Shown one piece after another: positions 49,655-50,962 of a stretch of 64,000 nt of DNA (its first letter is position 1; every line of letters starts with the position of its first letter). The DNA is taken from assembly GCF_003334335.1 (NCBI RefSeq), contig NZ_QOWQ01000003.1, one strand, 5' to 3'. Source of the stretch: Escherichia coli. GTDB taxonomy: Bacteria > Pseudomonadota > Gammaproteobacteria > Enterobacterales > Enterobacteriaceae. Under the pieces are notes generated by a model. The model did not search any database, was not told the origin of the DNA, and saw only the letters and a list, made by a program, of their open reading frames with translations. The position numbers and the translations under genes are program-made.

Positions 49655-50962
49655 ATGAAACGTGTTTCTCAAATGACCGCGCTGGCAATGGCTTTAGGGC
49701 TGGCTTGCGCTTCTTCGTGGGCCGCTGAACTGGCGAAGCCTCTTACACTTGACCAGCTTCAACAACAAAATGGCAAAGCGATAGATACTCGCCCCAGCGC
49801 GTTTTATAACGGCTGGCCACAAACCTTAAATGGCCCTTCTGGTCATGAACCTGCCGCCTTAAACCTCTCTGCCAGCTGGCTTGACAAAATGAGCACCGAA
49901 CAGCTCAACGCGTGGATCAAGCAACATAACCTGAAAACCGATGCTCCGGTGGCGCTGTACGGTAATGACAAAGATGTCGACGCCGTCAAAACGCGACTGC
50001 AAAAAGCAGGTTTAACGCATATCTCCATCCTGAGTGACGCGCTAAGCGAACCTTCCCGTCTGCAAAAACTGCCGCATTTTGAGCAGCTGGTTTATCCGCA
50101 ATGGCTGCACGACCTGCAACAAGGTAAAGAGGTTACGGCGAAACCTGCCGGTGACTGGAAAGTCATTGAAGCGGCCTGGGGCGCTCCTAAGCTTTACCTT
50201 ATCAGCCATATTCCCGGCGCTGACTACATCGATACCAACGAAGTGGAAAGTGAACCGCTGTGGAACAAAGTTTCTGATGAACAACTAAAAGCGATGCTGG
50301 CAAAACACGGCATTCGCCATGACACCACGGTCATTCTGTATGGGCGTGACGTATACGCTGCAGCGCGTGTGGCGCAGATTATGCTTTATGCTGGCGTGAA
50401 AGATGTGCGCCTGCTGGATGGCGGCTGGCAAACCTGGTCCGACGCGGGACTGCCTGTTGAGCGCGGAACGCCACCGAAAGTGAAAGCGGAACCGGATTTC
50501 GGCGTGAAGATCCCGGCACAACCGCAGTTGATGCTCGATATGGAACAGGCCCGTGGACTGCTGCATCGCCAGGATGCATCGCTGGTGAGCATTCGTTCGT
50601 GGCCAGAATTTATCGGTACGACCAGCGGTTACAGCTATATTAAACCAAAAGGTGAAATAGCCGGCGCACGTTGGGGACACGCTGGTAGCGACTCGACGCA
50701 TATGGAAGATTTTCATAACCCGGATGGCACCATGCGCAGCGCCGATGATATTACCGCTATGTGGAAAGCGTGGAATATCAAACCAGAGCAGCAAGTTTCA
50801 TTCTACTGCGGCACCGGCTGGCGCGCGTCCGAAACCTTTATGTACACACGCGCCATGGGTTGGAAGAATGTTTCCGTGTATGACGGCGGCTGGTACGAAT
50901 GGAGCAGCGATCCAAAAAATCCGGTAGCAACCGGTGAACGCGGCCCGGACAGTAGCAAATAA
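49655..50962 (+). CDS. ynjE: Periplasmic multi-domain rhodanese (thiosulfate/3-mercaptopyruvate sulfurtransferase-like) YnjE
   Basis: ORF track 440 aa trimmed to MKRVSQMTALAMALGLACASSWAAE (signal peptide); rhodanese active-site loop FYCGTGWRASE near the C-terminus. Confidence 0.9.
   Translation: MKRVSQMTALAMALGLACASSWAAELAKPLTLDQLQQQNGKAIDTRPSAFYNGWPQTLNGPSGHEPAALNLSASWLDKMSTEQLNAWIKQHNLKTDAPVALYGNDKDVDAVKTRLQKAGLTHISILSDALSEPSRLQKLPHFEQLVYPQWLHDLQQGKEVTAKPAGDWKVIEAAWGAPKLYLISHIPGADYIDTNEVESEPLWNKVSDEQLKAMLAKHGIRHDTTVILYGRDVYAAARVAQIMLYAGVKDVRLLDGGWQTWSDAGLPVERGTPPKVKAEPDFGVKIPAQPQLMLDMEQARGLLHRQDASLVSIRSWPEFIGTTSGYSYIKPKGEIAGARWGHAGSDSTHMEDFHNPDGTMRSADDITAMWKAWNIKPEQQVSFYCGTGWRASETFMYTRAMGWKNVSVYDGGWYEWSSDPKNPVATGERGPDSSK

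Follow-up and report, generated by a model that had tools for sequence, protein, structure and literature searches.

Why does the gene for an exported sulfurtransferase lie directly behind the genes of an ABC importer, and do the two serve one process? The question is raised by a locus in the 64,000-nucleotide stretch of Escherichia coli DNA analyzed here (the window, to which all coordinates refer). The gene at 49655-50962 on the plus strand, which encodes an exported three-domain sulfur-carrier enzyme, is the already well-known E. coli ynjE (b1757). Its open reading frame runs from the ATG at 49655 to the TAA at 50960-50962 (435 amino acids plus stop), and these coordinates agree with the MG1655 annotation after mapping (window position = NC_000913.3 position minus 1,789,812); the conversion of published coordinates was checked against a published intragenic sigma54 motif. 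The product is identical at 433 of 435 residues to the crystallized protein deposited as 'thiosulfate sulfurtransferase YnjE' (PDB 3IPO/2WLR). Gene, neighbors, signal peptide, three domains and Cys385 are the same as in YnjE of E. coli K-12 (b1757; PDB 2WLR, 2WLX, 3IPO, 3IPP), and the two substitutions are Pro66 for Leu and Thr398 for Ala. Pro66 is also carried by one orthologue representative (P0054). The gene order from ydjX to ynjF is that of MG1655, and the ynjE region was found in 5424 of 5426 complete E. coli genomes.

The start codon at 49655 (GATGAAACGTGTT) was the only invariant one, in 77 of the 79 distinct orthologous upstream regions, the two regions without it, L067 and L081, being partial matches in the wrong register; an alternative ATG at 49640 in the list of open reading frames was rejected. 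A Shine-Dalgarno-like GGGA (49645-49648, plus strand) lies 6 nt 5' of the ATG, and GTCGGG or GTCAGG is kept 5' of the start in most orthologous regions. The distance to ynjD, given as about 66 bp in the same orientation by the earlier note on this DNA, comes to exactly 66 nt when counted from the ynjD stop codon, which ends at 49588, and both genes are on one strand.

By hydropathy and residue pattern, residues 1-23 (49655-49723, plus strand) form a predicted Sec-type signal peptide, of a shape common to orthologues. In the N-terminus, MKRVSQMTALAMALGLACASSWA/AELAKP, two basic residues are followed by a hydrophobic core, and a small-x-small motif stands just ahead of Ala24; MKR corresponds to the basic n-region, VSQMTALAMALGLACA to the h-region (nine-residue Kyte-Doolittle peak of 2.3) and SWA/AE to the cleavage site. 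This three-part layout can be read in 78 of the 79 orthologue N-termini, the one clear exception being a truncated match, and 63 of the 79 pass a crude signal-peptide score. Among the full-length 50%-cluster representatives of the family, about half (32 of 65) have signal peptides or lipoboxes. The Tat motif S/T-R-R-x-F-L-K is absent from YnjE, in which the n-region MKRVSQ contains a single Arg. Nor is the lipobox L-[AS]-[GA]-C a conserved feature: E. coli YnjE reads G-L-A-C18, but in most genera Cys18 is replaced by Ser or other residues with the A/A[DE] site retained, and a lipobox is unlikely because Cys18 is not conserved. The N-terminal signal peptide of the earlier note is therefore seen as a Sec-type pattern kept across orthologues, and YnjE, which is stated to be periplasmic (PMC10215317), is predicted from sequence and from such statements in the literature to be exported to the periplasm.

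The mature protein has three Pfam PF00581 matches, on the plus strand: domain 1 (residues 34-129; 49754-50041; E=1.1e-3, a weak match) and domain 2 (residues 177-263; 50183-50443; E=3e-11) lack an active-site Cys, and domain 3 (residues 297-418; 50543-50908; E=7e-12) is the catalytic one. The structure entry of YnjE (PDB 3IPO/2WLR) also names three domains. The active-site loop FYCGTGWRASE (residues 383-393, with Cys385 and Arg390; 50801-50833, plus strand) is of the EanB type by alignment to FYCGTGWRGSE of EanB. The triple rhodanese with a C-terminal catalytic loop that had been read from this DNA is thus confirmed. Cys385, the sole cysteine of mature YnjE, opens the six-residue loop CGTGWR in the C-terminal domain, as expected of the rhodanese superfamily, and C385, W389 and R390 are retained in 63-65 of the 66 family members. 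Classical thiosulfate sulfurtransferases have the loop CRxGx[R/T], and 3-mercaptopyruvate sulfurtransferases have CG[S/T]GVT. CGTGWR departs from the former, and YnjE also falls outside the SseA (3-mercaptopyruvate) type by its loop and by its score against NCBIfam NF008557 (63.8 bits vs a cut-off of 250). Purified YnjE without its signal sequence had no apparent thiosulfate:GSH activity, and YnjE is described as poor with both thiosulfate and 3-mercaptopyruvate (PMC10215317), and a site of the EanB type fits this poor activity.

The anaerobic ergothioneine synthase EanB from Chlorobium limicola (PDB 6KTV, 6H98) is also a three-domain protein, which aligns with YnjE residues 33-427 with an E-value of 1e-88. 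Both proteins carry the loop FYCGTGWR, and the equivalents of EanB Glu345, Tyr353, Tyr411, Cys412, Thr414 and Arg417 are retained. Those of Tyr353, Cys412 and Arg417, whose catalytic roles in EanB have been described (PMC10903977), are Tyr326, Cys385 and Arg390, and the catalytic residues of the EanB type are kept in 63-65 of the 66 members of the YnjE family. However, Tyr375 of EanB corresponds to Thr348, at a position variable across the family, and the EanB chains align only from YnjE residue 33 onward and so, unlike YnjE, show no counterpart of the signal peptide in the alignment. An EanB-type synthase would be expected in the cytoplasm and paired with a histidine N-methyltransferase (EanA/EgtD), whereas no such gene is present among ydjX-ynjF and YnjE has a signal peptide. 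Among other rhodaneses, E. coli PspE is also exported and has one catalytic cysteine; PspE, however, is single-domain, efficient with thiosulfate and responsible for most of the cellular rhodanese activity, whereas YnjE has three domains and almost no activity with thiosulfate. SseA and the other 3-mercaptopyruvate and bovine-type thiosulfate sulfurtransferases have tandem folds to which YnjE domains 2-3 align (E 1e-26 to 1e-12), but they are two-domain enzymes of the cytoplasm or mitochondria with the loops CG[ST]GVT or CRxGx[RT], in contrast to CGTGWR.

Judging from the conservation of its upstream region, ynjE has its own promoter, with a predicted start, within the 66-nt gap and the last codons of ynjD, and this promoter is conserved across Enterobacteriaceae. 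The palindrome CTGCGATAACGCAA (49580-49593, plus strand), which overlaps the ynjD stop codon, is a candidate class II activator (FNR-type) site centered at -41.5. In the 75 site-carrying regions among the 79 distinct ynjE upstream regions, T2, G3, A8 and C10-A13 of the palindrome do not vary, and G5 and A14 are each kept in 74. A hexamer xAxAAT follows at a fixed spacing of 22 nt, with the A, A and T conserved in 100% and the middle A in 97% of these 75 sequences; in the window it is the -10 hexamer CAGAAT (49616-49621, plus strand), with a predicted transcription start near 49628. The palindrome center lies 29.5 nt upstream of the first -10 base, that is, at -41.5 when the hexamer is taken to occupy -12 to -7, which is class II geometry (activator site near -41.5), and the same -41.5 geometry has been given for the ynjE FNR site (PMC3688515). 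Published FNR ChIP peak centers map to about 49575 and about 49599, and for sigma70 under anaerobic conditions the ChIP peak lies at about 49629 (peak 10.5 vs 609; PMC3688515).

Of the 10 positions of the FNR consensus TTGAT-N4-ATCAA the palindrome matches only 5, and the deviation itself (TGCG rather than TTGAT) is conserved. No canonical FNR box scoring above 6/10 was found near ynjE; of the candidates, only the conserved palindrome has the geometry required. The direct activator at the palindrome could be another protein of the CRP/FNR type, though ChIP shows FNR there. A shared regulon motif, TG[CT]G-N4-CGCA, was considered and dropped, being absent from the co-regulated yedEF and yjiLM promoters. 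The sole promoter-like match in the gap by consensus scan, TTCAGA-16-TACAAT (49614-49641), was rejected as the main promoter because TACAAT is not conserved outside Escherichia, whereas CAGAAT is the conserved hexamer. The ynjD-ynjE gap folds no better than shuffled sequences (z=-0.7), and an Rfam scan of 43000-52600 gave nothing meaningful.

Published data agree with a separate transcription unit: ynjE is listed as an operon that is activated by the oxygen sensor FNR and has separate ChIP peaks for FNR and sigma70, its expression is about 20-fold lower without FNR, and the ratio of delta-fnr to wild type is 0.044 for ynjE vs 0.28 for ynjD (PMC3688515). With a conserved internal promoter of this kind, ynjE and ynjBCD do not form a single operon in the strict sense, co-transcribed from one upstream promoter only. 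For the ydjXYZ-ynjABCD operon, an FNR ChIP peak and expression dependent on FNR have been published (PMC3688515), and a near-consensus FNR box, TTGAGAAAAATCAA (43466-43479, plus strand; 9/10 match), lies upstream of ydjX in its promoter. The earlier note had held that an own promoter together with unrelated regulation would speak against a link between ynjE and the importer. The own promoter is there, but the regulation is not unrelated: both units are activated by FNR, and ynjE and the upstream importer operon share one iModulon (PMC7888660). Furthermore, ynjE is co-regulated with yedEF, a putative selenium transporter and sulfurtransferase. We found no strong terminator between ynjD and ynjE, and thus read-through is possible. 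At the other end, a 12-bp hairpin (50974-51000), a possible 3'-end structure, starts 11 nt beyond the ynjE stop codon, within the 3'-terminal codons of the convergent ynjF; the region 50940-51030 folds at -30.1 kcal/mol (z = -3.3), and no U-run follows the hairpin. The ynjE-ynjF pair has been reported among convergent overlapping transcripts (PMC12288877).

As a whole, these observations are best explained, with a probability of about three in four, if ynjE encodes an exported triple rhodanese that is expressed from its own FNR promoter and transfers persulfide sulfur in the periplasm by means of an EanB-type site. FNR and anaerobic sigma70 would act at this promoter to express ynjE, ydjXYZ-ynjABCD being co-induced from an FNR promoter of its own, and part of the ynjE expression may come from ynjD read-through. 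The 435-residue precursor would be exported by its Sec-type signal peptide, with only the last rhodanese fold carrying the catalytic Cys385. In the periplasm Cys385 would be loaded to a persulfide and would pass sulfane sulfur, or possibly selenium, to a periplasmic acceptor; the active site (Glu318, Tyr326, Cys385, Trp389, Arg390) would be of the EanB type and not of the classical thiosulfate or mercaptopyruvate type.

What, then, of the importer? The annotation confirms that ynjE lies next to it: ynjB (binding protein), ynjC (fused double permease) and ynjD (ATPase), at 46261-49588 on the plus strand, are assigned to an uncharacterized ABC importer by annotation, NCBIfam and Pfam. These genes overlap or abut one another (ynjB/ynjC by -28 nt, ynjC/ynjD by -1 nt), compared with the 66-nt gap before ynjE. 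YnjB matches the generic SBP_bac_8/SBP_bac_1 families and NCBIfam PRK11622, lies outside the Sbp/CysP-type sulfate/thiosulfate-binding families of NCBIfam and Pfam, and has no relative among solved structures; the listed top 120 of its homologues are from Enterobacteriaceae only, and two clusters carry Salmonella labels. YnjC weakly matches PhnU2/ModB and resembles thiamine, aminoethylphosphonate and molybdate permeases. Thus YnjBCD has neither the Sbp/CysP nor the CysU/CysW families of a sulfate/thiosulfate importer, and only the generic ATPase YnjD resembles CysA, which is one among about 179 families that it matches.

The order ynjB-ynjC-ynjD-ynjE is kept in all Enterobacteriaceae loci whose contig is long enough, with Hafnia (L072) as the sole exception among the 80 loci examined, which are the best 80 of 146 genome hits to ynjE; no Salmonella locus is among these 80, and absence from Salmonella is not claimed. 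Among homologues of 41-75% identity, the ABC genes adjoin ynjE in none of the six informative contexts (Hafnia, L087 at 64% identity, Aquitalea at 55%, L086, L088 and L089); four further contexts (P0121, P0124, P0130 and P0134) were left out as uninformative, the contigs being too short. A 182-aa gene beside P0124 was considered as YnjA-like and ruled out. Compared with the importer, ynjE is accompanied more persistently by a DedA protein, YnjF and an AhpD-like protein. The most persistent is ynjF (50971-51591, minus strand), a convergent gene for a membrane protein of the CDP-alcohol phosphatidyltransferase family, which adjoins ynjE wherever the contig reaches further, including Hafnia and L087. 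We infer that the importer adjacency is a feature of Enterobacteriaceae and not of the YnjE protein family, and its conservation there may be plain inheritance.

One alternative is that YnjE and YnjBCD form one uptake pathway, in which thiosulfate, persulfide or polysulfide is converted in the periplasm, bound by YnjB and imported by YnjCD, ynjE being effectively the last gene of the operon. The 66-nt same-strand spacing without a strong terminator, the ynjBCDE order in Enterobacteriaceae and the shared FNR activation and iModulon are consistent with it. However, ynjE has its own conserved promoter with a much larger FNR effect than that for ynjD, the adjacency is lost in Hafnia and the five other contexts, and an order kept within one bacterial family may simply be inherited. 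Furthermore, YnjB and YnjC do not resemble sulfate/thiosulfate components, and thiosulfate is a poor substrate of YnjE (PMC10215317). We therefore consider a common pathway unlikely. Of the proposals of the earlier note, thiosulfate or persulfide processing before import finds no specific support, whereas the physical link of the sulfurtransferase to uptake machinery stands as adjacency and co-expression, within Enterobacteriaceae.

In the annotated role, YnjE is cytoplasmic and relays sulfur from IscS into molybdenum cofactor synthesis at the MoeB/MoaD step. The literature and the RefSeq product name ('molybdopterin synthase sulfurtransferase') give this role, which is counted against the periplasmic reading preferred here; the in vitro work of Dahl et al. 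2011, as cited in reviews, supports the relay, and activation by FNR would match a greater need for molybdoenzymes when oxygen is absent. However, the conserved, predicted cleavable signal peptide would place native YnjE across the membrane from IscS, MoeB and MoaD, and the protein purified in PMC10215317 lacked the signal sequence. In addition, a delta-ynjE strain had no molybdenum cofactor deficiency phenotypes in base-analogue and chlorate assays, and its authors call the role 'limited' (PMC3831636). A native role in this relay is thus distinctly improbable.

Very improbable, too, is that YnjE forms C-S (or carbon-selenium) bonds on a small heterocycle outside the cytoplasm with polysulfide as donor: the full-length homology to EanB with the catalytic Tyr, Cys and Arg retained, its mention as one of the EanB-like enzymes without an assigned function that 'may attach sulfur to heterocycles' (PMC9516567) and the co-regulation with yedEF favor this, but no substrate of YnjE is on record, we found no report in the literature of C-S bond formation or of sulfur transfer to trimethylhistidine by YnjE, the ydjX-ynjF cluster has no histidine methyltransferase partner, Tyr375 of EanB is replaced by a variable Thr, and the conserved residues may merely define the persulfide chemistry of the fold. 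As a long shot, YnjE might be a periplasmic, anaerobically induced EanB-like enzyme, and not a thiosulfate enzyme, that places polysulfide sulfur (or selenium) on a gut heterocycle, the product being imported by YnjBCD in Enterobacteriaceae, and the non-consensus palindrome at -41.5 might tune the promoter to the level of FNR or to a second regulator of the CRP/FNR type.

The gene, its structure, signal peptide, neighbors and FNR regulation have been published already, and our analysis adds little to them as a finding. It does make a mismatch visible: databases give YnjE a cytoplasmic role in molybdenum cofactor synthesis, whereas its sequence says that it is exported, and it uses the standard rhodanese donors poorly. 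The search for its role is narrowed by three features, namely that the importer is a lineage-specific neighbor, that the promoter has a conserved and unusual class II site, and that the family as a whole retains the catalytic residues of an enzyme that forms C-S bonds.

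The gene at 49655-50962 (plus strand, 435 codons) is E. coli ynjE. It maps exactly to b1757 of MG1655 (NC_000913.3), from which the interval 43000-54000 differs at five positions only, and the ynjE region is found in 5424 of 5426 complete E. coli genomes. The product is identical at 433 of 435 residues to the crystallised "putative thiosulfate sulfurtransferase YnjE" (PDB 3IPO/3IPP, 2WLR/2WLX). Two non-synonymous ynjE differences from MG1655 lie at 49851 and 50846. Residue 66 is Pro here and also in the orthologue representative P0054, and thus K-12, with Leu, may be the exception; residue 398 is Thr here and Ala in both K-12 and P0054. 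The earlier note described a secreted triple rhodanese encoded about 66 bp downstream of ynjD in the same orientation, and suggested that it may process persulfide or thiosulfate before import. The observation is confirmed, while its interpretation is partly supported, and almost all that is described for this gene was known before. Three rhodanese domains were identified with Pfam (the N-terminal one as a weak match), the catalytic loop FYCGTGWRASE occupies residues 383-393 and contains Cys385, the sole cysteine of the mature protein, and the ynjD stop codon ends at 49588, leaving a gap of exactly 66 nt.

The claimed signal peptide also holds. The annotated ynjE ATG and the sequence around it, GATGAAACGTGTT, are unchanged in 77 of the 79 orthologous regions, that is, in all correctly registered ones; an upstream in-frame ATG at 49640 was rejected, as it is not conserved among these regions. 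The N-terminus, MKRVSQMTALAMALGLACASSWA|AELAKP, shows the tripartite build of a Sec signal peptide and has no twin arginine, and N-termini of the same shape (small-x-Ala, then Ala-Asp/Glu) occur throughout the orthologues. A lipoprotein signal is unlikely because Cys18 is not conserved. Export signals are also present in more distant relatives, including the Aquitalea homologue (55% identical to YnjE; N-terminus MKTRTFYALAACLLPWTLAQA|A). A signal peptide or lipobox was seen in roughly half of the 65 full-length cluster representatives; the remainder look cytoplasmic. In published work YnjE is treated as periplasmic, and its signal sequence was omitted for biochemical expression (PMC10215317). 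The RefSeq product name is "molybdopterin synthase sulfurtransferase", and YnjE has been positioned between IscS and MoaD by reviews. However, the proposed partners in this pathway are all cytoplasmic, in conflict with the conserved export signal, and the ynjE deletion showed no molybdenum-cofactor deficiency among the phenotypes tested, the role being judged "limited" (PMC3831636). We rank this function below a periplasmic role.

The genes ydjX to ynjD follow each other closely (intergenic gaps of 4, 14, -1, 9, -28, and -1 nt), and the 66 nt ahead of ynjE are the only sizeable gap in the ydjX-ynjE run. Alignment of the 140 nt 5' of ynjE from 79 distinct sequences (Escherichia, Citrobacter, Klebsiella, Raoultella, Enterobacter, Kluyvera, Buttiauxella, Leclercia, and others) revealed two conserved blocks amid otherwise variable sequence. 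One is a palindrome, xTG(C/T)G-N4-CGCAA (E. coli form CTGCGATAACGCAA, 49580-49593), which spans the ynjD stop codon; the other is a hexamer, cAgAAT (49616-49621), exactly 22 nt past the palindrome, with A2, A5, and T6 invariant. Taking the hexamer as the -10 element (-12 to -7) puts the palindrome centre at -41.5, as in a class II CRP/FNR-family activator site, and the predicted start near 49628. Only 5 of the 10 FNR consensus positions are matched by the palindrome, and the bases that deviate are conserved too. The idea that it is the mark of an unrecognised regulator also acting on yedE or yjiM was rejected, as the palindrome is absent from those promoters.

Myers et al. 2013 (PMC3688515) reported ynjE as a separate operon under direct FNR activation, the best FNR site lying at -41.5. 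With a coordinate conversion of +1975, checked against a published intragenic sigma54 motif found at 50369-50385, their FNR ChIP peak centres fall at ~49575 and ~49599, flanking the palindrome centre (49586.5), and a sigma70 peak under "Anaerobic" (values 10.5 and 609) falls at ~49629. In the same study the delta-fnr/wild-type expression ratio changes from 0.28 for ynjD to 0.044 for ynjE, as expected with an extra promoter before ynjE. The conserved palindrome and hexamer agree with these ChIP and expression data, and ynjE has its own promoter. No convincing terminator was found between ynjD and ynjE; thus, read-through may contribute to ynjE expression. The sigma54 motif, GTGGCGCAGATTATGCT, was published as a binding site within ynjE (Bonocora et al. 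2015, PMC4591121), and the next same-strand gene is nudG. A 12-bp hairpin, CTGACGCTGGAG/CTTCAGCGTCAG (50974-51000), lies 11 nt past the ynjE stop codon, inside the last nine codons of the convergent ynjF, and ynjE-ynjF is among the overlapping convergent transcripts termed "excludons" (PMC12288877).

An own promoter with unrelated regulation had been regarded as evidence against linkage to the importer. The regulation is not unrelated, since ydjXYZ-ynjABCD is likewise directly activated by FNR, and independent-component analysis assigned ydjXYZ-ynjABCD, ynjE, yedEF, and yjiLM to a single anaerobic iModulon (PMC7888660). Upstream of ydjX there is a near-perfect FNR box, TTGAGAAAAATCAA (43466-43479, 9 of 10 matches). 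The published FNR ChIP peak centre near ydjX converts to ~43570, roughly 100 nt downstream of this box, and a weaker candidate site (7 of 10) lies at 43553-43566.

The gene does lie beside the importer and is regulated together with it, but this arrangement is confined to Enterobacteriaceae. Among the best 80 of 146 genome matches, all close relatives of YnjE (74-98% identity), every Enterobacteriaceae locus with enough contig has ynjB-ynjC-ynjD-ynjE followed by convergent ynjF. Because all sampled loci except Hafnia belong to one family, shared ancestry can explain this conservation. Hafnia paralvei (75%) has a DedA gene, ynjE, ynjF, and an AhpD-like gene, with no ynjBCD within 10 kb of ynjE, and locus L087 (a 64% identical homologue) has the same four-gene arrangement. 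The Aquitalea homologue and those of loci L086 and L089 are stand-alone genes without the importer, and that of L088, a metagenomic contig, has a DoxX membrane protein gene as its partner, also without the importer. In L088 the homologue (9579-11272) overlaps the upstream DoxX-family gene by 4 nt, which suggests a different membrane partner in that lineage. From the Hafnia and L087 contexts, the persistent neighbours are a DedA protein, YnjF (a CDP-alcohol phosphatidyltransferase family member), and a YnjA-like AhpD/CMD protein; the transporter is not one of them. In the E. coli cluster there are two DedA-family membrane proteins (YdjX and YdjZ, 43589-45703) and YnjF (50971-51591). These lipid-related proteins are the neighbours kept beside ynjE in Hafnia and L087, and their retention could indicate a membrane-lipid process rather than solute uptake. 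In most non-Escherichia genera, a second YnjA-like AhpD/CMD gene directly follows ynjF, convergent with ynjE (loci L008-L081, ~11940-12580, minus strand, e.g., L008 11999-12517; 49-60% identical to YnjA). It is missing in Escherichia, Klebsiella, Raoultella, and a few other loci (e.g., L014, L015, L048, and L058), where ynjA sits in the upstream operon instead.

Profile matches of YnjB, YnjC, and YnjD gave no sign of a sulfur-anion importer. YnjB matches generic models only (PRK11622, SBP_bac_8, and SBP_bac_1) and has no relative among solved structures, YnjC, a fused double permease, weakly resembles aminoethylphosphonate and molybdate permeases, and YnjD is equally like about 179 ATPase families. 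YnjA (45703-46251) scores 101 bits, below the cut-off of 310, against the NCBIfam model "YciW-related (seleno)protein", and yedEF, co-regulated with ynjE, encode a putative selenium transporter and sulfurtransferase; together these point, faintly, to a cluster that handles selenium, not sulfur.

Thiosulfate processing before import runs against published assays. By sequence, the top structural relatives of YnjE, apart from itself, are entries for the anaerobic ergothioneine synthase EanB (6KTV, 6H98, and mutants), with E=1e-88 over residues 33-427 and all three domains covered, whereas classical two-domain rhodaneses and mercaptopyruvate sulfurtransferases match domains 2-3 only and far more weakly. 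The two classical loop motifs of the rhodanese superfamily are CRxGx[R/T] and CG[S/T]GVT; CGTGWR of YnjE fits neither and is identical in EanB. EanB Tyr353, Cys412, and Arg417, held critical for C-S bond formation (PMC10903977), correspond to YnjE Tyr326, Cys385, and Arg390, which together with Glu318 and Trp389 are retained by 63-65 of the 66 full-length members of the family, both secreted and cytoplasmic; EanB Tyr375 corresponds to YnjE Thr348, at a position variable across the family. These EanB-like, non-classical features agree with published enzymology, and YnjE has already been listed as an "EanB-like enzyme" of unknown function, with sulfur attachment to heterocycles suggested as a possible activity (PMC9516567). 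The role of an exported, FNR-induced, EanB-like sulfur carrier is a genuine question, and one that the literature already recognises.
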